A DNA stretch of 64,000 nucleotides from an uncultured Candidatus Saccharibacteria bacterium (GTDB lineage Bacteria; Patescibacteriota; Minisyncoccia; Minisyncoccales; JANBVM01), in contig CAZBMQ010000004.1 of assembly GCA_964493485.1 (NCBI GenBank), forward strand, positions 4,340 through 68,339, written 5' to 3'. The notes beneath the pieces are model-generated. The model worked only from the letters and a program-made list of their open reading frames with translations, was not told where the DNA came from and ran no database searches. Below are positions 2,171 through 12,763 of the stretch, in pieces. Both the position numbers and the translations under genes were made by a program. How positions within the stretch are numbered: position 1 is the first letter of the stretch; the number at the start of each line of letters is the position of its first letter.

Positions 2171-2202
2171 AAATAAAAAAATAAGGGCAATTATTTTGCC
2201 CT
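2171..2202 (-). terminator. Intrinsic terminator after the 74-aa Zn-ribbon gene
   Basis: Minus strand AGGGCAA-AATAA-TTGCCCT followed by TATTTTTTTATTT. The stem overlaps the stop codon. Confidence 0.6.
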
Positions 2203-2425
2203 ATTCAAAAATTAATATCTCTGTTTTGGGTTTAAAGGATACTCCTATCTTCGGAGAATCCTCTTTTCTAGAATGTGATACCGGAGACCAGGATTTCTCT
2301 CCTGCTCTCTCAGACTCTAAGAGTCTTCCCGCAAGAAAAAATTTCTTGCATTTAGGACAGAAAACCATGCCTCCGGCAAAGGGAATTAAGGTTGACTTAC
2401 ATTCCGGACACTCCATATTTCTCAT
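2201..2425 (-). CDS. Zn-ribbon mini-protein with long tail ending in Glu (...TEILIFE)
   Basis: 74-aa ORF with CPECK...CPKCK (two CxxC). SD GAGGTGA lies upstream; the true start may be the second Met (MECPEC). Confidence 0.5.
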   Translation of the reverse strand: MRNMECPECKSTLIPFAGGMVFCPKCKKFFLAGRLLESERAGEKSWSPVSHSRKEDSPKIGVSFKPKTEILIFE

Positions 2426-2512
2426 TCACCTCTCTTTTTTTAATTTTAAGAACTAAACAATAAATATTAAAAAGGAAAAATATAAAAAGAAAAATTTATT
2501 TAAATTATTTAC

Positions 2513-2671
2513 TCAAAATATACTATTTTCTTCAGAGTATTTCTCGCCACAATTTCTACAAACACAAGAATTGTGTTTATCAAAAATTTCATTTATTTCT
2601 CCACATTCTGGACAGACTGTTATACACCACTCATAATTTCGATCTGCAATATTTAAATTTATAACGTTCAT
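2513..2671 (-). CDS. Zn-ribbon mini-protein (52 aa), below ORF-track cutoff
   Basis: Hand translation: MNVINLNIADRNYEWCITVCPECGEINEIFDKHNSCVCRNCGEKYSEENSIF. It has CPECG...CRNCG, and a strong SD AAAGAGGAG lies 5 nt upstream of the ATG. It is the first gene after attenuator unit 1. Confidence 0.55.
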   Translation of the reverse strand: MNVINLNIADRNYEWCITVCPECGEINEIFDKHNSCVCRNCGEKYSEENSIF

Positions 2672-2754
2672 TTCAACTCCTCTTTTTCTTTTTAAAGAAC
2701 TTTCAGACCTTTTGGCCTGAAAATTATTTATTTTTAAAACAAACAGTTTTCAAG

Positions 2755-2792
2755 CCAAAAAGGAAAACCTCCCAGTCTTGCTGGGAGGTTTG
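2755..2792 (-). terminator. Attenuator terminator, unit 1 (seg3:seg4)
   Basis: Minus strand AAACCUCCCAG-CAAGA-CUGGGAGGUUU followed by UCCUUUUUGG. The stem is a perfect 11 bp. Confidence 0.75.
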
Positions 2793-2827
2793 ATAATTTT
2801 TCTATTTATTAATTTTTTTCTATTTTT

Positions 2828-2965
2828 CTACACTACAAGTATATATTTATATCTCAAACCTCCCAGCCTTTCTAGGACAATAATTAGAATTACAAAAATA
2901 AACTCTACGACTGAGAGGTTTAAATTTAATCTATTATTTAACTTTTTCAAAGTTAAACTTGACAT
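2828..2965 (-). CDS. Putative attenuator leader peptide, Val/Ile-rich (45 aa)
   Basis: Hand translation: MSSLTLKKLNNRLNLNLSVVEFIFVILIIVLERLGGLRYKYILVV*. It contains seg1 (2911-2921) and seg2 (2856-2866) of the repeated pairing element, bracketing 4 Val + 4 Ile codons. Confidence 0.5.
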   Translation of the reverse strand: MSSLTLKKLNNRLNLNLSVVEFIFVILIIVLERLGGLRYKYILVV

Positions 2966-3011
2966 TTTATATTATCCTGCCAAAACCAAGAAGATTTGTC
3001 AATAAAATCTT

Positions 3012-3044
3012 CCCCAAAATAATCTGCGGAGGACGGACCTCCGC
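3012..3044 (-). terminator. Terminator after M20 peptidase gene
   Basis: Minus strand GCGGAGG-UCCGU-CCUCCGC followed by AGAUUAUUUU. This is a GC-rich 7-bp stem in AT-rich context. Confidence 0.6.
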
Positions 3045-3061
3045 AAACTACCAAAGTTGGG

Positions 3062-4147
3062 TTATTTTGACACCCTTGTCACAAATTCTTTTAAGACTAA
3101 ATAAAATCTATCTAAGTCTTTTAAATCAATCCATTCCTTTTCGCTATGCTGACCTCCTCCTTTAGGTTTTATCAACAAAACTGGAATTTTCTTTTTTACA
3201 AAAAAACGCGCATCAGAAGAGCCGTGAGAAATTACAAAAGAAGTTTTAATTTTGAATCTTTTTAAAGCAATTTGCGAAAAGGTCTGAATATAAGGATTAT
3301 CAGGATTTATTTTGAAATTATCTCCAAAAACAATTTCTTTGATTTTGATGTCTTTAAAATTCTTCTTTACTGAATTCAAAAGTTTTTTTAGATGAGATTT
3401 ATTTGTTTTAGAAGTAAACCTAATATCAATCCAGGCAAAGGCAGAATCAGGAATCTTGTTAATAGCTATTCCTCCTTGAATCTTCCCAATATTAAGTGTT
3501 TCATGATAATGATTTTTAATATGACAGGGTTCCCTTGGAAACTCTTTTCTTAATACATTCAAAAAACTTATCAGATTTTCTATAGCATTCTTTCCTAACC
3601 AAGGTCTTGAGCCGTGAGCAGATTTACCTTTACTTTCAATCAATAAGTGCCATACTCCTTTAGCTTCTTTTTCAAACTTCCACTCTCCCCCTCCGTCAGG
3701 CAAAAAACATACTTTAGATTTAAAACCTTTATCCAACAAAAACTTTACTCCATTAAAACCCCCTATTTCTTCATCTGTGGTTATCATTATACCAAAATTA
3801 TATTTTGATAAATCTTTATTTAACTCTTTTAATAACTTCAAATAACAGGCAATAGCAAACTTCATATCATAAGCCCCTCTGCCGTATAAACGGTTTTTAA
3901 CTATCCTTGGCTTAAAAACCTTTTCAGGTCCCTCAACCACATCCAAATGCGCCTGCAACAAAATAATTGGTTTTTTAGTTTTTTGAGTGGTAATCACCAA
4001 AGAAGAGAAGCCGTTTGATTTAAAATCTTTAATATAAACAGGCAAATCCTTAATTTGCGTTTTTATCCACCCCAAAGCTTTTTCATTTTCTTTATGATTT
4101 TTGGTTATTGTTTTAAAAGAAATAAGTTTTTTCAATATCTTTAACAT
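3062..4147 (-). CDS. M20 family metallopeptidase (ArgE/DapE/ACY1/CPG2/LysK-type)
   Basis: LQAHLDVV, GRGAYDMK, TTDEEIGG and GKSAHGSRPWLGKNAI are the metal-ligand and catalytic motifs of M20 deacylases/carboxypeptidases. Confidence 0.85.
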   Translation of the reverse strand: MLKILKKLISFKTITKNHKENEKALGWIKTQIKDLPVYIKDFKSNGFSSLVITTQKTKKPIILLQAHLDVVEGPEKVFKPRIVKNRLYGRGAYDMKFAIACYLKLLKELNKDLSKYNFGIMITTDEEIGGFNGVKFLLDKGFKSKVCFLPDGGGEWKFEKEAKGVWHLLIESKGKSAHGSRPWLGKNAIENLISFLNVLRKEFPREPCHIKNHYHETLNIGKIQGGIAINKIPDSAFAWIDIRFTSKTNKSHLKKLLNSVKKNFKDIKIKEIVFGDNFKINPDNPYIQTFSQIALKRFKIKTSFVISHGSSDARFFVKKKIPVLLIKPKGGGQHSEKEWIDLKDLDRFYLVLKEFVTRVSK

Positions 4148-4160
4148 TATTAGGATTATA
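4148..4160 (-). promoter_or_regulatory. -10-like TATAAT 7 nt upstream of the M20 ATG (leaderless-type start?)
   Basis: Minus strand ...TATATTATAATCCTAATAATG has no SD. The predicted TSS falls at or near the A of the ATG. Confidence 0.35.
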
Positions 4161-4163
4161 ATA

Positions 4164-4190
4164 TAAAAAAAGAGGAGATAAAATATCTCC
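4164..4190 (-). terminator. Terminator after ATP-grasp paralog A
   Basis: Minus strand GGAGAUA-UUU-UAUCUCC followed by UCUUUUUUU. Confidence 0.65.
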
Positions 4191-4204
4191 TTTAATAATT
4201 TAAT

Positions 4205-5329
4205 TTATTCTTCCTCAATCAAAGTTCCAGCAAAACCAGCTCCCTGGGTAACATTAATAACACCTCTATTCCAGTAGGTCTTCCACTTATCAATTCTAGA
4301 AATCGTGTATAAGTACTTCAAATCTCTACCTCGTGCCCAAAAAGCAACATTAATATCTAGTGCATAACTATCGAAAGGAAGTTTTATTTTGGGTAACCAT
4401 TTTGCCTCAAATAATCCATATCCTCCTCTCAGCAAAGCTTTTCTTAAATTATTCTCCCAATCTTTATGGGTCATCAATCTTCCTATGTAGACATCTGCGC
4501 CAGAGCTCCCCAGAAACCTTTTTAAAACCCATTTATCTTTTTCCCTGAGGCCAAAACTAACCTTTTCTTCAGTATCCAAAACTATTACCTTCCCGGCTAA
4601 CTCAATATTAGATAGCAAAGATTTGTCTGAGATAAAACCATTAGAAGGAATAGTATTGAATACCAAATTTCTTGGATAATTCTTAATGTGCTCCATAAAT
4701 TCATAACTGAACTCAGAAGGACCTCTGGTGTTCCTGTAATCTCCATAAAGATATACTGCCTTCTCTTTTCCTATTAAACCTTCTTTAATAAACTTAGTTT
4801 CAGTTACCACTGAAAATTTCAATCCAGATTCACTTAGTTCTCTAAAGAATATTTCTCCCCATTGGGTTTTAACAAACCCATTTCCTTTAACAATTATGAT
4901 TTCTTCATTTCCATATGTTTCTTTTACAGCTTTAACAAATCTTTCAGTGGCTATGGGCTGGAGTTTCTTCAAAATTGGCTTTGCATTGTGAAGCACAGAA
5001 ACCGCTGTATGGCATTCTGGACTTCTGTCATTGATTTCATAAATTCCTGTAATCTCTATGTTACCCAAATCATATCCTTTTTTACCTTCCCATTCTATCT
5101 TCTTGGGAATACTCGAAAAACTAGGAACCAAATCATATCTAATAAGCCCTGTAAAATCAGGACATATATAAATTAGTGTTTTCCATATTTTCTTGCAAAT
5201 CTCTGTTAATTCCCTTCTTTCTTTTTCTGTAATGATTAAAAGCCCATTTATAGCCCCAATTTTTTTCTCACCTAACATAAAAGGAGAGCTGGTATCTAAA
5301 AATGGCTGACCAAACAATACAATTTTCAT
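4205..5329 (-). CDS. ATP-grasp-type ligase-like protein, paralog A (GSP-synthase / circularly-permuted ATP-grasp-like; family tentative)
   Basis: 374 aa. It aligns end to end with the ORFs at 5599.. and 7089... Shared motifs are GLIRxDLVP...IYExNxRSPEC, VLKxFLGSSGxDxYxGR and LDINxxFW...GVINVxxGxGFxGTLI. SD AAAGGTGA lies 6 nt upstream. Confidence 0.7.
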   Translation of the reverse strand: MKIVLFGQPFLDTSSPFMLGEKKIGAINGLLIITEKERRELTEICKKIWKTLIYICPDFTGLIRYDLVPSFSSIPKKIEWEGKKGYDLGNIEITGIYEINDRSPECHTAVSVLHNAKPILKKLQPIATERFVKAVKETYGNEEIIIVKGNGFVKTQWGEIFFRELSESGLKFSVVTETKFIKEGLIGKEKAVYLYGDYRNTRGPSEFSYEFMEHIKNYPRNLVFNTIPSNGFISDKSLLSNIELAGKVIVLDTEEKVSFGLREKDKWVLKRFLGSSGADVYIGRLMTHKDWENNLRKALLRGGYGLFEAKWLPKIKLPFDSYALDINVAFWARGRDLKYLYTISRIDKWKTYWNRGVINVTQGAGFAGTLIEEE

Positions 5330-5360
5330 CCATTTTCACCTTTTAACGTTCTATATAAAT

Positions 5361-5396
5361 GAAAAAGAAAATCTCCCAGCTGTGCTGGGAGATTAA
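5361..5396 (-). terminator. Attenuator terminator, unit 2 (seg3:seg4)
   Basis: Minus strand AAUCUCCCAGC-ACA-GCUGGGAGAUU followed by UUCUUUUUC. The stem is a perfect 11 bp. Confidence 0.8.
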
Positions 5397-5419
5397 TCTT
5401 TTAAATTGTTCCTATTTTA

Positions 5420-5503
5420 TTATTTTTTAAATTCAAAATCTCCCAGCTCTGCAGGGTCAATAATATTTATGACAATAATAGCTAGGAGTTTTAAATTGCT
5501 CAT
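5420..5503 (-). CDS. Putative attenuator leader peptide, Ile-rich (27 aa)
   Basis: Hand translation: MSNLKLLAIIVINIIDPAELGDFEFKK*. There are 5 Ile in 7 codons (ATT ATT GTC ATA AAT ATT ATT) between seg1 (5481-5492, degenerate) and seg2 (5435-5447). Confidence 0.55.
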   Translation of the reverse strand: MSNLKLLAIIVINIIDPAELGDFEFKK

Positions 5504-5516
5504 AATTGATTTATTC

Positions 5517-5545
5517 AAAATAACAAACTAAAAAAGGGGTGTCAA
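5517..5545 (-). promoter_or_regulatory. Sigma70-type promoter of unit 2
   Basis: Minus strand TTGACA-17 nt-TATTTT, with TG one base upstream of the -10 (extended -10). It sits 13 nt upstream of the leader ATG. Confidence 0.55.
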
Positions 5546-5570
5546 GAAATTCTGTGTGGAAAAACAAATT

Positions 5571-5598
5571 AAAAAATGGAGATATATTTTATATCTCC
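5571..5598 (-). terminator. Terminator after ATP-grasp paralog B
   Basis: Minus strand GGAGAUAUA-AAAU-AUAUCUCC followed by AUUUUUU, immediately after the stop codon. Confidence 0.7.
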
Positions 5599-6783
5599 TT
5601 ATAAAAGATTTAATACATTCTTTAGAGCATTATTTAAATAGTCTATCAATGTTCCAATAAAACCTCCTCCTTTTGCGACATTAATAACTCCTTGTTTCCA
5701 ATATCTATTCCACTCGTCAATTCTCGAAATGGTATATAGATACTCCAAGCAATCTCCCTCTGCCCAAAAAGTAGGATTAATGTCAATTGCGTATTCTCCA
5801 AATGGTGGAAGTTTTAATTTTGGAAGCCAGCACGCCTCAAAAAGTCCGTATTTTCCTTCTCCTAAATAGCAATAACTTTCAAGAATCTCTTTCCACTCTT
5901 GAGACGAAAATAATCGTCCCATAAAAATATCTCCCCCAGAACTGCCAAGAAATGGCTTCAAAACAAGATTGTTTTGCTTCTCTAAACCAAATTTTATTGC
6001 TTTTGAATTTAGAACCCGATTGTCTCCCACCAAATTATCCCAGTAAAAAATTCCTTTAGGAAATAATAATCTTTTATCAGAAATATACCCATGTTCATTC
6101 GGTAAACTATTAAAAATCTTTTCTCTTGGATAATTCTTAATGTATTCCATAAATTGTTCAGTGAATTCAGCCGGTCCCTCTTTCCTGTAATCTCCAAACA
6201 AATAAATGGTTTTATTTTTTGAATCAATTATAAACTCCTCTGGAGAAATAACTTCAAGATTTATCCCACATCTTTTTAGGTCTTCAAAGAAGATGTCTCC
6301 CCAGTTGTCCTTCAAAAATCCTTTCCCTCTTATTAAAGTAATATTTTCTCCAAATTTCTTCTTTAATTTTTGTGCAAAACGGCAAGCTGCAGACGGCTGA
6401 AACCCTGCAAGATCTTCTCTGGCAGAATGAAGAGCCGACACTCCAACTCCGCATTCTGGAGACCGGTCGTTAAGTTCATAAATTTTTGCAATATCTAACT
6501 TTCCCAAATCATATATTGTAATTCCTCCTTTTTTAACTATTTTCAATGTACTATTGAATTTTGGAACCAAATCAAATCTAACCAATCCTTTGTAGCTATA
6601 TTTAAATGGGTCATTCCAGAACCTCATTAACATCTTCCAAATATAACGGCTAACATTAATAATTTCCTCTAACTCTCTGTTGTCTAACAGAAATAATGCA
6701 TTGGTCGTTCCAATCTTTAGCTCTCCGAGCTTTAAAAAATTCTGCTCTAAAAAATTATCTTGGTTTAATAATACAATTCTTAT
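5599..6783 (-). CDS. ATP-grasp-type ligase-like protein, paralog B (N-terminus extended to an ATA codon)
   Basis: The ORF-track start (6633, MLMRFW) removes ~50 aa that align with paralogs A and C. The in-frame extension reads IRIVLLNQDNFLEQNFLKLGELKIGTTNALFLLDNRELEEIINVSRYIWK. Codon 6783-6781 is ATA exactly where paralog A has ATG, with the same SD (AAGAGGTGA) 6 nt upstream. In-frame stops lie at 6787-6792. Confidence 0.6.
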   Translation of the reverse strand: MRIVLLNQDNFLEQNFLKLGELKIGTTNALFLLDNRELEEIINVSRYIWKMLMRFWNDPFKYSYKGLVRFDLVPKFNSTLKIVKKGGITIYDLGKLDIAKIYELNDRSPECGVGVSALHSAREDLAGFQPSAACRFAQKLKKKFGENITLIRGKGFLKDNWGDIFFEDLKRCGINLEVISPEEFIIDSKNKTIYLFGDYRKEGPAEFTEQFMEYIKNYPREKIFNSLPNEHGYISDKRLLFPKGIFYWDNLVGDNRVLNSKAIKFGLEKQNNLVLKPFLGSSGGDIFMGRLFSSQEWKEILESYCYLGEGKYGLFEACWLPKLKLPPFGEYAIDINPTFWAEGDCLEYLYTISRIDEWNRYWKQGVINVAKGGGFIGTLIDYLNNALKNVLNLL

Positions 6784-6811
6784 TTCTTATCACCTCTTAA
6801 TTTTAAAAGAA

Positions 6812-6849
6812 CTAATAAACAAAATCTCCCAGCTGTGCTGGGAGATTAA
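6812..6849 (-). terminator. Attenuator terminator, unit 3 (seg3:seg4)
   Basis: Minus strand AAUCUCCCAGC-ACA-GCUGGGAGAUU followed by UUGUUUAUU. The stem is a perfect 11 bp. Confidence 0.8.
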
Positions 6850-6873
6850 TCTTAAATATTTATAAAATGGTTT

Positions 6874-7008
6874 CTAAAATATTCTATTGTGTGTCAACTT
6901 CAAATCTCCCAGCCAAGCAGGGTCTAAAACTAGCAATAGCAATAAATCCAACTTAGTTGGGAGATTATCAAAACAAATATTTAACTCTTTTTCTTCTAAA
7001 AATGACAT
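6874..7008 (-). CDS. Putative attenuator leader peptide, Leu-rich (44 aa)
   Basis: Codon-by-codon hand translation: MSFLEEKELNICFDNLPTKLDLLLLLVLDPAWLGDLKLTHNRIF*. There are 7 Leu in 10 codons between seg1 (6956-6966) and seg2 (6902-6913). Confidence 0.55.
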   Translation of the reverse strand: MSFLEEKELNICFDNLPTKLDLLLLLVLDPAWLGDLKLTHNRIF

Positions 7009-7024
7009 AAAAAGATATTTTTTA

Positions 7025-7053
7025 AAAATAACAAACTGAAAAAATAATGTCAA
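7025..7053 (-). promoter_or_regulatory. Sigma70-type promoter of unit 3
   Basis: Minus strand TTGACA-17 nt-TATTTT with a TG extended -10. It sits 16 nt upstream of the leader ATG. Confidence 0.55.
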
Positions 7054-7059
7054 GCTTTT

Positions 7060-7086
7060 TAAAAAAAAGAGGGAGTAGAACTCCCT
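7060..7086 (-). terminator. Terminator after ATP-grasp paralog C
   Basis: Minus strand AGGGAGU-UCU-ACUCCCU followed by CUUUUUUUU. Confidence 0.7.
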
Positions 7087-7088
7087 TA

Positions 7089-8261
7089 TTATTTTATTTT
7101 TTCATCTACTATTAAATTACCAATTACTCCTCCGCCACTAGCTACATTAATTGTTCCTCTTTTAAAATAGTTTTTATATATATCTGCTCTAGCTATCACA
7201 TATAAATCCTTTACTTCTCCTTTCCCGTTGCACCAAAATGCAGGATTAATATCTAAGGTAATTACTGTATTAAATTTGGGAAGCTTAAGTCTTGGAAGCC
7301 ATTTTGCCTCATAAACTCCATATTCTCTCTTTTTTAAACATTCTTTTAAAATCTTATCCCAATGGTTAGATGATTCTTTGCGTCCAAAATAAATATCTCT
7401 CCCTGAAGAACCCTCCAACCTTTTAACCACAATGAAGTTTTTTTTCTTTTTTGCTTTTGAATAAGCTTTTTTTGAATCCAAGAAAAAGTTATTTCCTACT
7501 AACCTATTCCACCACTCCTTGTTAGGCTGTGGCATAAGCAGCCCTTTATTAGAAAGACTCTTTTTATACAACGTATTGAATATCTTTTTCTCCCCTTGAT
7601 AAGTCTTAAGTATTTCAGAAAACCACTCCGGCAATTCTTGTAAATCTTGCGGCAAAAAATCTCCATAATCAGCCCATATCCAAAAAACTTCATTATCTCT
7701 TTCTTTCTCCATAATTTCTACGGTTTGTTCAAAATTCAATAAATGAACTTCAATCTTTTCTCTCTCAAGACCTCTAACTAAAGATTTTGAAAAATTTCTT
7801 TTCAAAACACTATCCCCTGGAACAATATAAAGTGCTGAATCTCCAAATGTTTTCTTAAAAGCATCTGCAAAATTAGCACAAGTATTTGGTTGAAATTCTT
7901 TTAAGATTTCCATTGATTGATGAAGCGCTTCTCCCACAGCTATACATTCAGGAGAACGAACATTAAATTCGTAAATCCCTATAATCTCTAAAGAACCGAA
8001 GTCATAAGCTTTCATTCTTCGCCATATAGTTCGTTTTGGAATTGCAGTTCTAAAAGCAGGAACCAAATCAGCTCTTATTAATCCTGTAAAATCTGGAGGT
8101 GATATTTCCTGCCACAACTTCTTTGCTGTCAAGACAATCTTACTATATTCTTCCTGGCTTGCTACCAACAATACCTTACATATCCCAATAGGAATATCAT
8201 CTATTTTAAAATCCGGCTTGAAACAAAACAATTTCTCATTATCCAAAGGAACTATCAACAT
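7089..8261 (-). CDS. ATP-grasp-type ligase-like protein, paralog C
   Basis: 390 aa, with the same motif set as A and B: GLIRADLVP...IYEFNVRSPEC, VVKRLEGSSGRDIYFGR, LDINPAFW...GTINVASGGGVIGNLI. Confidence 0.7.
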   Translation of the reverse strand: MLIVPLDNEKLFCFKPDFKIDDIPIGICKVLLVASQEEYSKIVLTAKKLWQEISPPDFTGLIRADLVPAFRTAIPKRTIWRRMKAYDFGSLEIIGIYEFNVRSPECIAVGEALHQSMEILKEFQPNTCANFADAFKKTFGDSALYIVPGDSVLKRNFSKSLVRGLEREKIEVHLLNFEQTVEIMEKERDNEVFWIWADYGDFLPQDLQELPEWFSEILKTYQGEKKIFNTLYKKSLSNKGLLMPQPNKEWWNRLVGNNFFLDSKKAYSKAKKKKNFIVVKRLEGSSGRDIYFGRKESSNHWDKILKECLKKREYGVYEAKWLPRLKLPKFNTVITLDINPAFWCNGKGEVKDLYVIARADIYKNYFKRGTINVASGGGVIGNLIVDEKIK

Positions 8262-8302
8262 TTTCCATATCTACCTCATTCATTATTCATTTCCATATTT
8301 AC

Positions 8303-8340
8303 TTGTAAAAGAAAATCTCCCAGCTTTGCTGGGAGATTAA
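8303..8340 (-). terminator. Attenuator terminator, unit 4 (seg3:seg4)
   Basis: Minus strand AAUCUCCCAGC-AAA-GCUGGGAGAUU followed by UUCUUUUAC. The stem is a perfect 11 bp. Confidence 0.8.
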
Positions 8341-8364
8341 AGTCTATGTTTATTAATTAAAGAG

Positions 8365-8508
8365 TTAAATTTGTATCAAACTATAACCTAAACTTAAATC
8401 TCCCAGCAAGGTCTGGAGAGCAAAAAAGAAAAAAAAGAAAAACTCTACCAACCTAGTTGGGAGATTATATTGCAAAATATTTATTTTTTGGTTTTTGAAT
8501 ATCGACAT
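8365..8508 (-). CDS. Putative attenuator leader peptide with seven consecutive Phe codons (47 aa)
   Basis: Codon-by-codon hand translation: MSIFKNQKINILQYNLPTRLVEFFFFFFFALQTLLGDLSLGYSLIQI*. The Phe run (TTT TTC TTT TTT TTC TTT TTT, 8442-8422) lies between seg1 (8457-8467) and seg2 (8396-8407). Confidence 0.6.
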   Translation of the reverse strand: MSIFKNQKINILQYNLPTRLVEFFFFFFFALQTLLGDLSLGYSLIQI

Positions 8509-8531
8509 CTTAAAATCTGGAATATTTTATT

Positions 8532-8560
8532 AAAATATCAAAGCTAAAAAATCTTGTCAA
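8532..8560 (-). promoter_or_regulatory. Sigma70-type promoter of unit 4
   Basis: Minus strand TTGACA-17 nt-TATTTT, with the same geometry as units 2 and 3. Confidence 0.5.
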
Positions 8561-8577
8561 TAAAAGTCAATAAAAAA

Positions 8578-8865
8578 TTATAATGCCCCTTCTTTTTTAA
8601 GCAAAACAATCTTTTTTTTAGTTCCCAAATAATATCCCCCTGGTGTACCATTCGATTTTATGACTCTATGACAAGGAATTTTGGGGTTTCTATTTTTATT
8701 TAGCACATTCCCCACTGCCCTCCAGGCTTTAGGAAAACCTGCAACTTCTGCTACTTCTTTATAACTCATTGTTTTTCCTTTAGGAATTTTTTTTACAACC
8801 TTATATACTTTCTCTTTAAAACTTTTTTCTTTTCTAAATTTTTTATATCGCTTGTTTTTTCTCAT
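8578..8865 (-). CDS. MGMT-family protein (O6-alkylguanine-DNA alkyltransferase DNA-binding/active-site domain only)
   Basis: KGKTMSYKEVAEVAG...WRAVGNVLNKN...IPCHRVI carries the PCHRV active-site motif. At 95 aa it lacks the N-terminal domain. Confidence 0.8.
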   Translation of the reverse strand: MRKNKRYKKFRKEKSFKEKVYKVVKKIPKGKTMSYKEVAEVAGFPKAWRAVGNVLNKNRNPKIPCHRVIKSNGTPGGYYLGTKKKIVLLKKEGAL

Positions 8866-10272: not shown

Positions 10273-10809
10273 TTATTTAATTCGAAAGCATTCTCCGTGA
10301 CCTGGATATACCACCATTCCAGGCTTCAATATGCTTCTTAATCTCTCTAAAGAAGCTAAAAGGTCTTTTTCTGAACCCCCTTTAAGGTCAGTTCTGCCAC
10401 ATCCTTCTTTAAAAAGAGTATCCCCTGTCAAAATAAACCCTTCTCCCAATAGACAGATGCTTCCTTTTGTATGTCCTGGCGTATGTATTACATTTAATAC
10501 ACTGTCTCCTATTTTTATTTTATCCCCCTCTTTTAAAAACTGGTCTGGCTCAAAATCTATAAAGTCTTTCTCCTCTTTATGAATTAAAATCTTAGCTTTG
10601 GTCTTTTTTTGTAATTCTTTTACACCTCCTGTATGATCTAAATGATAATGGGTATTGATGATATATTTTGGCTCTCCTCCTAATTCTTCAATTTCTCTTA
10701 TAATTCTTTGTATTTCTGCTCCAGGATCAACAATCCCTATCTCTTTATTTGAAATCAAAAGATAACAATTTGTCTGTAAAATTCCAACTGAAATTCTTTT
10801 AATTTGCAT
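10273..10809 (-). CDS. MBL-fold metallo-hydrolase
   Basis: NTHYHLDHTGG (HxHxDH), HTPGHTKGS and a C-terminal GHG are present. Confidence 0.85.
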   Translation of the reverse strand: MQIKRISVGILQTNCYLLISNKEIGIVDPGAEIQRIIREIEELGGEPKYIINTHYHLDHTGGVKELQKKTKAKILIHKEEKDFIDFEPDQFLKEGDKIKIGDSVLNVIHTPGHTKGSICLLGEGFILTGDTLFKEGCGRTDLKGGSEKDLLASLERLRSILKPGMVVYPGHGECFRIK

Positions 10810-10879: not shown

Positions 10880-11479
10880 TTATTCCCACTTTACTATATA
10901 TTCATGATATTTATCTCCTCTATAAACACATTTGGTTTCTTCACAACTTACTGGTTTACCCAACACCATTTTTATTATACTTATTAAATAACCTTCCACA
11001 GTCAAGCAATGAAATGGATGGTGTTCAAAGTTTTCAACTCTTACCACTATATATTTTTTCTCTTTATTTATTTCAGTTACCTTCATATCTCCGGTTGTAT
11101 AATATCTTCTCCAAAATTTAGATGCATGCTTTGCAATCACTTCAAGAGAAACAAAATATTTCATAAAAAGTTTTACCACAAGAGACACCTTTGAATTAAA
11201 CTCCCCCATTTTAATAAATTCTTCTCTATCAAAATTGAAAAGCTTCTTGAAAACTAAAAATGTTAAAGCCTCTAACCCTATTGGATAAAGAGCCATTCCA
11301 TTCATCTCTTTGTATTTTATTGGGTAACCAAGCTTTTCTAATTCTTGTTCTACTTTTCTTAATCCTTCCTCTCCTTCTTTATAAAGAATATATTCTAAAT
11401 CTCCCATAATAGAAACACCTCTTGTTTCTCCTTTAATCTCCATTAATTTTTTAGCTGTTTCTTTTGTTAGTTCCTCCAT
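10880..11479 (-). CDS. ~200-aa Cys/His-motif sensor-like protein, family member 1 of 9 (V4R/DUF2378-like, tentative)
   Basis: Shares IKGETRG, EGEEGL, LGYPI, FYP, FMKYF, HPFHC and the C-terminus CEETKCVYRGDKYHEYIVKWE with eight paralogs in the window. Confidence 0.6.
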   Translation of the reverse strand: MEELTKETAKKLMEIKGETRGVSIMGDLEYILYKEGEEGLRKVEQELEKLGYPIKYKEMNGMALYPIGLEALTFLVFKKLFNFDREEFIKMGEFNSKVSLVVKLFMKYFVSLEVIAKHASKFWRRYYTTGDMKVTEINKEKKYIVVRVENFEHHPFHCLTVEGYLISIIKMVLGKPVSCEETKCVYRGDKYHEYIVKWE

Positions 11480-11516
11480 AAATTTTAAAAAGTTTATAAT
11501 TTGTAAATAATAAATA

Positions 11517-12116
11517 TTACCATTTTAATACAAACTCATGATATTCATCACCTCTGTGAACGCATTTTGTCTCTTGACAGGTTGCAGGGGTCCCTACTAT
11601 CATTTGAACTATTCCGGGAAAATATCCTTGAAGATCCAAACATAAAAGTGGATATCCTTGGAAATTCTTGATTTTAATGATTGCATATTTTTTTTCTTCA
11701 TCAAATTCTGGAACCTCCAAATCTCCTACTGTATAATTTTCTTTCCACATTTTAGGAGCTACCTTTATTGCTTGTTTCATTGAAAAAAAATATTTCATAA
11801 AAAGTCGAATAATAAACGAAAGCTTAGATTCAAATCTCCCCATCTCTCTAAATTTCTCATCATCGTAATTAAAGAGTCTTTTTATCGCTACTAATGTAAC
11901 AACTTCTAATCCCAAAGGATAGAAATCCATTGCTTTTATTTCTTTAAATTTTATTGGATAGCCTAATTCTGCTATTGTTTTTTCCAATTTTTTGAGCCCT
12001 TCTTCTCCTTCCTGTTTAAGAATAAAATTCCCTTCTCCTTTAAGAGACATTCCCCTTGTTTCTCCCTTTATCTTCATTAATTCTTCAAACTCCTCTTTTG
12101 AAATAATCTGAGACAT
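11517..12116 (-). CDS. Cys/His-motif sensor-like protein, family member 2 of 9
   Basis: Family motifs present; C-terminus CQETKCVHRGDEYHEFVLKW. Confidence 0.6.
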   Translation of the reverse strand: MSQIISKEEFEELMKIKGETRGMSLKGEGNFILKQEGEEGLKKLEKTIAELGYPIKFKEIKAMDFYPLGLEVVTLVAIKRLFNYDDEKFREMGRFESKLSFIIRLFMKYFFSMKQAIKVAPKMWKENYTVGDLEVPEFDEEKKYAIIKIKNFQGYPLLCLDLQGYFPGIVQMIVGTPATCQETKCVHRGDEYHEFVLKW

Positions 12117-12157
12117 AATTATATATCATTTATGTTCAAAGTTCGAGGTTGGAAATT

Positions 12158-12763
12158 TTACTCCCATTTTATTATGAACTCATGATATTCGTCTCCTCTA
12201 TGGATACACTTAGTTTCTTGGCAAGTTATTTTCCCTTTTATTACCATCCCTACTAAAGCTGGGAAATATCCTTCAAGCCCTATACAATAAACCGGATGTA
12301 AAGCAAAGTTTTCAAGCCTTATAATTATATATTTCTTTTCTTTATTTAATTCAATCACTTTTAATTCCCCTGATGTATAATACTTGTGCCACATCTTAGA
12401 TGCGCTTTTCACAATCAAATCAAGGGAACCTAAATATCTTATAAAAATCCTTATTACAGAGGGGATTTTGGCGCTAAAAGCTCCCAATGCTTTAAAATCA
12501 TCTTTTGTATAATTAAACAATTTCTTGCACGCCAACATAATAACAGGCTCCAACCCAGAAGGATAAAATTTCATTGGTTCTATTTCTTTATATTTTATTG
12601 GATAACCAAGTTTTTCTAACTCTTGTTCCAGCATTTTTACACCGTCTTTGCCTTTCCTCTTTAAAACATAGTCAAAATCATCTTTTATTGCTATCCCTCT
12701 TGTTTCTCCTTTTATTTCCTCAATTATTTTTTTAGCAAGTTCTTTATTGATAATTTCTTCCAT
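12158..12763 (-). CDS. Cys/His-motif sensor-like protein, family member 3 of 9
   Basis: Family motifs present; C-terminus CQETKCIHRGDEYHEFIIKWE. It is third in a tandem triple. Confidence 0.6.
   Translation of the reverse strand: MEEIINKELAKKIIEEIKGETRGIAIKDDFDYVLKRKGKDGVKMLEQELEKLGYPIKYKEIEPMKFYPSGLEPVIMLACKKLFNYTKDDFKALGAFSAKIPSVIRIFIRYLGSLDLIVKSASKMWHKYYTSGELKVIELNKEKKYIIIRLENFALHPVYCIGLEGYFPALVGMVIKGKITCQETKCIHRGDEYHEFIIKWE

Follow-up and report, generated by a model that had tools for sequence, protein, structure and literature searches.

We analyzed a 64,000-nucleotide stretch of DNA (the window) from an uncultivated bacterium of the candidate phyla radiation (CPR, Patescibacteria), a group that makes up a large share of bacterial diversity, is almost entirely uncultivated and has no assigned function for most of its genes. 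On the minus strand, four leaders precede the genes for three paralogous ligases of the ATP-grasp fold and for a small Zn-ribbon protein. Judged from sequence, each of these units is very likely a ribosome-mediated transcription attenuator responding to how much charged tRNA is available for the amino acid or amino acids that a hydrophobic codon run encodes. Leader-peptide attenuation had been proposed in a first-pass annotation of the window, and the proposal is supported by RNA folding, by the layout of 27 out of 27 homologous leaders, by covariation, and by a run type that follows enzyme orthology.

Each unit consists of a promoter, a short open reading frame (sORF), four ~11-nt segments in alternating orientation (seg1 to seg4) and a perfect terminator with a U-tract. 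This shared minus-strand layout had been described for four intergenic regions, and all four units were found there. Four previously unannotated sORFs, each opening with ATG and starting MS, can be read on the minus strand; all four stop between seg2 and seg3, and in all four units seg3 and seg4 form a perfect 11-bp stem followed by a U-tract. The claimed TTGACA-17-TATTTT promoter holds for units 1–3, where it additionally carries an upstream TG. The claim of four segments per unit stands for units 1, 2, and 4, whereas seg1 of unit 3 is degenerate; likewise, seg1 and seg2 generally bracket the codon run inside the sORF, except that seg1 of unit 3 overlaps the first run codons. Below, W1–W4 denote the leaders of window units 1–4, and L001, L002, and so on denote homologous loci in other genomes.

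In unit 1, the promoter (8532–8560, minus strand like all unit features; TTGACA, 17 nt, (TG)TATTTT) is followed by a sORF of 47 aa (8365–8508; MSIF..FFFFFFF.., MSIFKNQKINILQYNLPTRLVEFFFFFFFALQTLLGDLSLGYSLIQI). Seg1 (AAUCUCCCAAC, 8456–8466) extends to 8449 as a small hairpin (CCAACUAGGUUGG), seven consecutive Phe codons (UUU/UUC) occupy 8422–8442, and seg2 (GCUGGGAGAUU, 8397–8407), which lies within the sORF and is identical to seg4, pairs with seg3 at −23.9 kcal/mol (0/200 shuffles as good). The terminator (8305–8338) comprises seg3 (8338–8328), an AAA loop, seg4 (8324–8314), and the U-tract (8313–8305). The probability of the sORF frame remaining open through seg2 in shuffled sequences was 0.046. 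Unit 2 repeats this arrangement with a promoter at 7025–7053 (TTGACA, 17 nt, (TG)TATTTT), a 44-aa sORF (6874–7008; MSFL..LDLLLLLVL.., MSFLEEKELNICFDNLPTKLDLLLLLVLDPAWLGDLKLTHNRIF), seg1 (AAUCUCCCAAC, 6956–6966), and control codons L-D-L-L-L-L-L-V-L (6925–6951), seven of nine specifying Leu (UUG, UUA, CUA). Its seg2 (GCUGGGAGAUU, 6903–6913; 2:3 energy −20.4 kcal/mol, 0/200 shuffles) precedes a terminator at 6814–6847 (seg3 6847–6837, loop, seg4 6833–6823, U-tract 6822–6814).

Unit 3 has a promoter at 5517–5545 (TTGACA, 17 nt, (TG)TATTTT) and the shortest of the four sORFs (27 aa, 5420–5503; MSNL..LLAIIVINII.., MSNLKLLAIIVINIIDPAELGDFEFKK). Its degenerate seg1 (AAACUCCUAGC, 5481–5491; AAACTCCTAGC) still pairs with seg2 at −21.4 kcal/mol (0/200 shuffles); the control codons LLAIIVINII (5459–5488) include five Ile among the seven codons of IIVINII, and seg2 (GCUGGGAGAUU, 5437–5447; 2:3 energy −22.4 kcal/mol, 0/200 shuffles) is followed by a terminator at 5361–5394 (seg3 5394–5384, loop, seg4 5380–5370, U-tract 5369–5361). 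Unit 4 carries TTGACA at 3002–2997, no good −10 element at 17 nt and GATAAT at 20 nt, so that its sORF (45 aa, 2828–2965; MSSL..VVEFIFVILIIVL.., MSSLTLKKLNNRLNLNLSVVEFIFVILIIVLERLGGLRYKYILVV) may be nearly leaderless. Here seg1 (AAACCUCUCAG, 2911–2921) is paired with seg2 at 11/11 positions, the control codons (VVEFIFVILIIVL, 2873–2911) comprise four Val, four Ile, two Phe, and two Leu, and seg2 (CUGGGAGGUUU, 2856–2866) pairs with seg3 at −26.7 kcal/mol (z = −11, 0/200 shuffles), upstream of a terminator at 2755–2791 (seg3 2791–2781, loop, seg4 2775–2765, U-tract 2764–2755). Across all units, the promoter lies within ~0–20 nt of the sORF, and the runs end 4–12 nt before seg2.

Alternative pairings and their conservation

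The repeated segments exceed chance levels within the window. The motif CTGGGAGRTTT, allowing at most one mismatch, has 16 matches against 3.2 expected, 13 of them in the four leaders. The strongest complement that the sORF region offers to the terminator 5' arm reaches −20 to −27 kcal/mol, compared with −7 to −9 kcal/mol in dinucleotide shuffles, and in each of the four leaders none of 200 such shuffles gave a 2:3 complement as good. We also scanned the whole window for terminator-like hairpins and sought the complement of each 5' arm in the 170 nt upstream. Only these four of the 22 hairpins detected had a strong upstream complement; the best complement among the other 18 was −14.8 kcal/mol, and no further attenuator of this kind was found in the window.

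Transcripts were then folded under constraints: unpairable up to the front edge of a ribosome positioned on mid-run, with seg2 masked in addition, or cut before seg4. Three of the four window leaders (W1 −41.7, W2 −31.9, and W4 −36.2 kcal/mol), and most leaders of the whole set, have 2:3 in their minimum-energy fold when a ribosome occupies the run. Masking seg2 as well gives a fold with 3:4 (−20 to −23 kcal/mol), and all four window leaders adopt 2:3 when the transcript ends before seg4. Without constraints, W2, W3, and roughly half of the homologs fold at full length into 1:2 + 3:4. The energies bear out the switch anticipated by the first-pass annotation, with 2:3 under a ribosome block in W1, W2, and W4 and 3:4 when seg2 is masked.

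The DNA upstream of family genes was read at homologous loci, giving a small and partly related set of 27 leaders, 24 before ligase genes and three before Zn-ribbon genes. They derive from Nealsonbacteria, Paceibacterota, Moraniibacteriota, Saccharibacteria, and further metagenome-assembled genomes, with proteins that are 33–50% identical. All 27 retain an ATG-initiated sORF of 24–52 codons, a hydrophobic run, seg2 inside the sORF, a stop before seg3, and a terminator, as the attenuation proposal required of homologs; the homologous terminators start 12–37 nt past the sORF stop. In 25/27 leaders the run ends 0–15 nt ahead of seg2 (typically 7–12), which would leave seg2 free for most positions of a stalled ribosome. 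In 24/24 distinct leaders the sORF stays open through seg2, with a shuffle probability per leader of 0.005–0.28 (mean 0.13).

Segment sequences differ from lineage to lineage, yet complementarity is kept across all types. At least seven types of seg2/seg3/seg4 occur (CUGGGAGAUUU; ..GAGGUUU; GGGGGGAUUG; GGGAGGG; CAGUCGGUUUGUUUUUG; CCGGCUGAGGUG; CGGGAGGUUUUC): the window and its relatives have CUGGGAG(A/G/U/C)UU, L003 has GGGGGGAUUG / CGGGAGGAUUU, L006 has GGGAGGG, L009 and its clade have CAGUCGGUUUGUUUUUG, L010 has CCGGCUGAGGUG, and L011, L013, and L014 have CGGGAGGUUUUC. Even within the window, seg2 of unit 4 differs from that of units 1–3 by an A-to-G change that seg4 shares and for which U-to-C in seg1 and seg3 compensates. 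Duplexes between a terminator arm and its own sORF region average −19.7 kcal/mol, against −13.0 kcal/mol for non-cognate combinations (Mann–Whitney p = 1.6e-10). Pair counts and the partner-swap and slide controls were computed in Python. In 11-nt anchored registers, the fraction of paired positions was 87% for 1:2, 90% for 2:3, and 90% for 3:4, compared with ~57.5–60% after partners were swapped (0/500 as good), the observed percentages being inflated because the registers of seg1 and seg2 were picked by best pairing. Double changes occur at 10–11 of the 11 positions of the anchored segments. The shuffle test, which includes that selection, is fairer: the 2:3 complement beats 200/200 shuffles in 17/27 leaders, with z between −2 and −11 in nearly all. 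The 1:2 pairing is strong in the four window leaders (10–11/11 bp) and in about two thirds of the homologs.

These patterns bear on whether the sORFs are kept for their peptides. As an alternative, the first-pass annotation had suggested precursors of ribosomally synthesized and post-translationally modified peptides (RiPPs) that the adjacent ATP-grasp ligases would modify, the hairpin setting only the precursor-to-enzyme ratio. RiPP loci commonly have a small peptide gene with a strong hairpin behind it, and graspetides are products of ATP-grasp enzymes; here, too, a separate small peptide gene and then a strong hairpin stand directly before every ligase gene, and the character of the peptide follows the enzyme paralog. 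From seg2 onward, however, the peptide is not conserved as a protein: orthologs preserve the RNA but read it in different frames. In W3, seg2 encodes ELGDF, in the orthologous L001C GAGNF; in L001B it encodes RLGVL, in the close relative L002B KAGGF. Because the nucleotides persist while the frame changes, selection seems to act on RNA pairing, which argues against a conserved peptide core. The sORF peptides contain no conserved Thr/Ser/Lys-Asp/Glu core, their C-termini are not conserved, and an NCBIfam search with them returned no precursor family. A stoichiometry hairpin would need no 2:3 or 1:2 complement, yet these covary; the same leader precedes the Zn-ribbon gene without a ligase, and a leader of the same kind precedes an FGase gene in L026. 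The enzyme fold is, moreover, of the glutathione-synthetase/GspS type and not of the RimK/MdnC type. With the frame changes in seg2, the unconserved C-termini, and a leader before a non-ligase gene all disfavoring it, we regard a RiPP system as very unlikely.

Still slightly less probable, in our assessment, is a reading in which the sORF products function as small hydrophobic proteins, such as membrane micro-proteins or type I toxin-like peptides, and the repeats are non-switching remnants of a duplicated terminator module. The hydrophobic center of the peptides would suit such a role, and duplication could account for the likeness of seg1 to seg3 and of seg2 to seg4. The hydrophobic stretches of 7–13 residues are, however, too short for a membrane helix, and outside the run the peptide is unconserved except where the RNA is constrained. 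Moreover, the sORF invariably occurs in the 5' leader of the same enzyme families and in the orientation of their genes. Finally, pairing is kept through complete sequence turnover between lineages, and such retained complementarity needs selection on pairing.

The arms of the proposed attenuator also have features that touch on translation and pausing. Both seg2 and seg4 of the window leaders, and of most homologs, are Shine–Dalgarno-like (GGGAGG/GGGAGA), and seg1 and seg3 there resemble the 16S rRNA 3' end (CCUCCC). The L009 clade does not share the Shine–Dalgarno-like seg2/seg4, and seg2 of L010 (CCGGCUGAGGUG) still has GAGGUG. This likeness could be incidental, reflecting a need for G/C-rich arms in an AT-rich genome, or it could add ribosome–RNA interactions. 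In units 1 and 2 (8448–8460 and 6948–6960, minus strand), the 3' end of seg1 folds into its own small hairpin (CCAACUAGGUUGG) just before the run, which in unit 1 consists of U-rich Phe codons; this hairpin is a possible polymerase pause site that could synchronize ribosome and polymerase.

Codon runs and the proposed mechanism

In a neighbor-joining tree of the enzymes, the three window paralogs group with their orthologs from L001 and L002 (~49% identity), and the runs follow the same grouping: FFFFFFF and GFFFFFT in the Phe clade, LDLLLLLVL, NLLLLS, and LNLLLI in the Leu clade, and IIVINII and VIINIVEII in the Ile clade. With UUG, UUA, and CUA all in use in the Leu runs, conservation applies to the amino acid and not to the nucleotide sequence. 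A separate radiation comprises three genomes with tandem copies in which the aromatic run comes first and the branched-chain run second (L011: LFFIFF, LILILLI; L013: FFEFFFF, FLIIVLLII; L014: NYFAFYGGF, IVLVVLIII). The two leaders of L011 share an identical seg2, C-terminal tail, and terminator, their main difference being the run. The Phe-rich leader RFFLAFSFFTFFP, which belongs to the single-copy gene of L006, lies directly after pheS-pheT, and other single-copy ligase genes lie near genes for prephenate dehydratase and branched-chain aminotransferase. Such a match between run and ortholog is what an amino-acid-specific attenuator would predict, and it is hard to explain otherwise.

The leaders could instead report translation speed or coupling in general, as in pyrBI and pyrE, with runs that are incidental or act through the nascent chain. 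The architecture requires merely that the ribosome lags behind the polymerase, so any slowdown would free seg2, and several single-copy leaders have mixed runs (L003, L004, L005, L009, L010, and L023). Nevertheless, homopolymeric, paralog-specific runs are kept across orthologs of ~49% protein identity; L011a and L011b differ mainly in the run; the mixture of Leu codons preserves amino-acid identity; and a Phe leader stands beside pheST. A general coupling sensor therefore appears unlikely to us, if less so than a peptide product.

As a side observation, amino-acid and tRNA-charging genes recur beside ligase loci, at L006:1165–4061 (likewise in L007, L008, L021, and L022), L009:6142–7910, L025:2408–3199, and L027:1726–3189 and 7380–8248. 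They comprise pheS-pheT directly upstream of the Phe-leader gene, class I aminoacyl-tRNA synthetases, a TyrA-like dehydrogenase, and a branched-chain aminotransferase together with a prephenate dehydratase.

The sequences themselves show that seg3 can pair in two mutually exclusive ways, that the reading frame through seg2 is conserved, and that a stop codon falls between seg2 and seg3; from these features we infer translation of the sORF, ribosome stalling, and the direction of the response. Under the attenuation model, transcription would start ~0–20 nt upstream of the sORF. A ribosome that meets no delay on the run would follow the polymerase through seg2 and stop between seg2 and seg3, leaving seg2 covered by the ribosome or re-paired with seg1; seg3 would then pair with seg4, and the 11-bp hairpin and U-tract would end transcription before the gene. 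If the cognate aminoacyl-tRNA is scarce, the ribosome would stall on the run, occupy the loop of the 1:2 hairpin, and hinder 1:2, so that naked seg2 could pair with the emerging seg3. Once 2:3 has formed, no terminator would arise and the polymerase would enter the gene. In the window, ligase 1 would be induced by a shortage of Phe-tRNA, ligase 2 by that of Leu-tRNA, ligase 3 by that of Ile-tRNA, and the Zn-ribbon gene by a shortage of any of Val, Ile, Phe, and Leu. The reverse logic, in which a stall leads to termination, was rejected: seg2 lies downstream of the run within the same sORF, and only a lagging ribosome frees it.

Several points weigh against attenuation of this form. Its likeness to the trp, pheA, leu, and ilv attenuators, as originally claimed, holds for the competition between 2:3 and 3:4, whereas the run sits in the seg1–seg2 loop and 1:2 is weak in about one third of the homologs. 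Since the run is downstream of seg1, a stalled ribosome leaves seg1 uncovered, unlike in trp, pheA, and his, and a block of 1:2 by a ribosome in the hairpin loop would be a steric effect, argued from geometry. The 1:2 pairing is no better than in shuffles in L001A, L005, L006, L010, L012, L013a, and L013b (~1/3 of leaders). For W3, the Ile leader, the equilibrium fold of the stalled state keeps 3:4, the formation of 2:3 being limited to the interval before transcription reaches seg4. At equilibrium, W1, W4, and others fold at full length into a nested 1:4 + 2:3, an option opened by the likeness of seg1 to seg3 and of seg2 to seg4. Default termination would thus rest on co-transcriptional order and not on equilibrium: either 1:2 must form first, or the ribosome must cover seg2. 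The sORFs lack a Shine–Dalgarno sequence and their 5' untranslated regions are very short and A/U-rich, so efficient sORF translation is assumed. Lastly, the regulated genes are not recognizable amino-acid supply genes, and it is puzzling that a ligase would be induced while its presumed amino-acid substrate is scarce.

The ligases, their partners, and neighboring genes

The three ligases are encoded on the minus strand at 7089–8261 (paralog 1, 390 aa, Phe-leader clade), 5599–6783 (paralog 2, 394 aa, Leu-leader clade), and 4205–5329 (paralog 3, 374 aa, Ile-leader clade). For paralog 2, homology places the start at an ATA codon (6783–6781): neither ATG, GTG, nor TTG occurs at the start position of the orthologs, and the ATA lies 7–8 nt after a GAGGTG Shine–Dalgarno sequence. 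The first ATG is at 6633, and public gene calls starting there lose ~50 conserved residues, including the equivalent of the invariant W49.

Searches of Pfam and NCBIfam with the three paralogs gave no match. Direct searches of 5.8 billion proteins returned 9 and 3 relatives only, those with a named source coming from CPR lineages, and 58 clusters scored below E 1e-30 in a profile search of 1.84 billion cluster representatives. The family is small (~58 clusters at 50% identity), and every member with a named source is from CPR. An AlphaFold model of paralog 3, built from an alignment of 12 family members, had a predicted local distance difference test (pLDDT) score of 91. Its Foldseek matches in the PDB (E 4e-12 to 1e-7, probability 1.0, template-modeling score ~0.5) were best with human, yeast, and plant glutathione (GSH) and homoglutathione (hGSH) synthetases, E. 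coli glutathionylspermidine synthetase (GspS), YgiC/YjfC, and 3n6x; the top 32 all belong to the GSH/hGSH synthetases, GspS, YgiC/YjfC, and 3n6x. Sequence identity to known circularly permuted ATP-grasp ligases is 11–13%, and the sole, indirect sequence link is that remote profile matches carry Pfam CP_ATPgrasp_1/2 and GSP_synth. The initial label of ATP-grasp is thus right at the fold level (model pLDDT 91, Foldseek E 4e-12), a three-domain fold within the circularly permuted branch. Ligases with this fold form a bond between a carboxylate and an amine by way of an acyl-phosphate. In the family, D325-x-N327 is invariant, as are several Lys, Arg, Asp, and Glu residues of the kinds typical of ATP/Mg sites; the set is compatible with ligase activity.

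The ligase gene nearly always adjoins that of an amidohydrolase, which is of one of three unrelated kinds. In the window, an M20 (ArgE/DapE-type) amidohydrolase (3062–4147, minus strand) lies next to ligase 3, and this conserved partner of the ligases is also found in L001, L002, L003, L005, L010, L011, L013, and L014; the partner is an FGase in L009, L012, and L023, and a C26 glutamine-amidotransferase-like protein in L004. Hydrolases of these families cleave N-acyl, N-formyl, or gamma-glutamyl groups off amino acids. Probably the ligases are circularly permuted ATP-grasp carboxylate–amine ligases, diversified into amino-acid-specific paralogs, that would work with the amidohydrolase. The fungal enzyme Cp1B, which has this fold and is a weak profile match to the family (E 0.09), links L-Leu, L-Ile, and related amino acids to a dicarboxylic acid (PMC12568646). 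Our best guess, made with low confidence, is an ATP-dependent ligate-then-hydrolyze route that raises the cognate amino-acid pool, as opposed to a secondary-metabolite pathway.

A second enzyme family carries leaders of the same type. In L012 and L020, the ligase is followed by a further leader with an aromatic run (LYFFFGFYFW) before a ~430-aa protein. In L012 this protein (431 aa) was considered as a distant member of the first family, but hhalign found no relation; it represents a separate, classical ATP-grasp family whose homologs carry Pfam ATP-grasp_3 or RimK. At each of four additional second-family loci the leader has an aromatic run (IWYLFLFIIELFF, IFYFWFLFSFYF, ILWVFFYFFF, and AFYFYWFF) and a significant 2:3 complement, and the runs of the family are F/Y/W throughout (LYFFFGFYFW, IWYLFLF, IFYFWFLFSFYF, ILWVFFYFFF, AFYFYWFF). 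The leaders lie at L012:5128–5270, L020:1747–1890, L025:3298–3450, L026:2406–2560, L027:3239–3425, and L028:3290–3450, that of L026 preceding both the FGase and the ligase. The hydrolase partners are again FGase, C26, or M20. A C26 glutamine-amidotransferase-like hydrolase and then a TatD DNase follow the family-1 ligase in L004:1773–3327 and the family-2 ligase in L027:4833–6277, a common context that makes the two ligase families look interchangeable and suggests non-orthologous replacement of one by the other. A 359-aa protein of L025, also considered, is not a family member and has no Pfam match.

The broadest reading, plausible but held tentatively, is of an undescribed, lineage-wide CPR/Patescibacteria regulon. 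Leaders for Phe, Leu, Ile/Val, or Phe/Tyr/Trp would gate two unrelated ATP-grasp families, a new circularly permuted one and a classical one, with interchangeable N-acyl-amino-acid-type amidohydrolases (M20, FGase, and C26), forming an ATP-dependent, amino-acid-specific ligate-then-hydrolyze pathway that raises aromatic and branched-chain supply in organisms thought unable to make these amino acids.

Downstream of unit 4, two tandem small Zn-ribbon proteins appear to be controlled together: 52 aa (2513–2671, minus strand) and 74 aa (2201–2425, minus strand) in the window, and 67 and 55 aa in L001:10619–10969. The Zn-ribbon label holds insofar as the 52-aa protein has two CxxC pairs, whereas its Pfam matches fall below threshold. 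Such genes occur only in window-, L001-, and L002-type genomes. We considered a LysW-like amino-group carrier, by which ATP-grasp, M20, and Zn-ribbon would correspond to LysX, LysK, and LysW; this is unsupported because the C-terminal tail is neither acidic nor conserved (..EKYSEENSIF versus ..GETLY) and the genes are confined to those genomes.

Past the unit 4 terminator, the sequence up to the Zn-ribbon gene (2672–2764, minus strand) contains a second hairpin (UUUUGGCUUGA...UCAGGCCAAAA), a small alternative hairpin, and GUUCUUUAAAAA before the Shine–Dalgarno sequence. The second hairpin is long and begins in the U-tract (UUUUGGCYUGA...UYAGGYCAAAA), with six compensatory pairs among eight sequences. 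It is found at L001:4912–5013, 6436–6525, 7910–8000, and 10530–10618, and also in L002, L003, L004, L005, L010, L013, and L014; within the window it occurs in unit 4 only and is absent from units 1 and 3. Its 3' arm can alternatively pair with the next bases to form a small hairpin with an AAAA loop, and a conserved GUUCUUU(U)AAAA after it can pair with the Shine–Dalgarno region of the ligase gene. The second hairpin may add a second regulatory layer.

Among neighboring genes, three paralogous V4R-domain proteins (199–201 aa) are encoded just upstream in the window (10883–12763, minus strand), beside a metallo-beta-lactamase-fold protein, a class I/II aminotransferase, and an MGMT-like DNA-binding protein; the order is the same in L001:863–2714. 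In L010 (3600–3705), a small ORF with a good Shine–Dalgarno sequence (MVWCYIAGILLIIISLKLLKG) and then a terminator lie directly upstream of the leader promoter; this ORF may encode a small membrane protein or be another leader.

Relation to known attenuators and ligases

The codon of the run, by naming its amino acid, would act as a built-in annotation of hypothetical ligases. Read in this manner, the leaders would assign Phe, Leu, Ile, and aromatic specificities across two ATP-grasp families and link them to a hydrolase partner, a first functional handle that would narrow "function unknown" down to a few biochemical assays. They would also extend ribosome-mediated attenuation to a new lineage and a new class of target genes, and their geometry should be useful for attenuator prediction tools, which assume the enterobacterial layout.

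We found no counterpart of this system, in line with the first-pass annotation, which knew of none: an Rfam covariance-model search of 2400–8700 gave only sub-threshold chance matches, with no leader family and no T-box, and full-text literature searches yielded no report of leader-peptide attenuation for CPR/Patescibacteria or for ATP-grasp ligase genes. Outside Proteobacteria, leader-peptide attenuators have been described in Actinobacteria (PMC1262725) and for the ilv leader of Listeria (PMC5864092). They were found by the same comparative logic, but theirs control amino-acid biosynthesis operons. T-box riboswitches likewise couple the charging of a specific tRNA to a choice between terminator and antiterminator upstream of amino-acid-related genes; they bind the tRNA directly, need no ORF, and have a conserved T-box and specifier loop, whereas here it is the ORF that is conserved.

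On the enzyme side, the circularly permuted ATP-grasp ligases (GSH/hGSH synthetase, GspS, the YgiC/YjfC peptide-spermidine ligases, and Cp1B) have the fold in common with the proteins described here, which are shorter (350–400 aa). Graspetides of the microviridin type likewise pair a small peptide gene with an ATP-grasp gene; here, by contrast, there is no conserved core, the RNA is conserved, and the ATP-grasp subclass is different.

The closest parallel is with the enterobacterial attenuators (trpL, pheL/pheA, pheM/pheST, leuL, ilvL/ivbL, hisL, and thrL), with which the leaders share a leader ORF with a codon run, the 3:4 and 2:3 pairings, and, in the window and about two thirds of the homologs, 1:2. 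The run compositions (FFFFFFF, L-rich, and I/V-rich) mirror those of pheL, leuL, and ilvL, and the Phe-rich leader of L006 closely resembles E. coli pheL. In trp, pheA, and his, the control codons lie inside seg1 and the stop comes before seg2; here the control codons lie in the seg1–seg2 loop, and the ORF runs through seg2 to a stop between seg2 and seg3. Seg1 resembles seg3 and seg2 resembles seg4, so that the element amounts to two copies of one inverted repeat. Further differences from the enterobacterial systems are a sORF without a Shine–Dalgarno sequence, a CPR/Patescibacteria host, and targets that are uncharacterized ligases and not biosynthetic operons or aminoacyl-tRNA synthetases. 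The regulatory principle is thus classical; what is new is the lineage, the enzyme families that are regulated, the paralog-by-paralog specificity, and the segment geometry, together with a ligase family that is itself undescribed.

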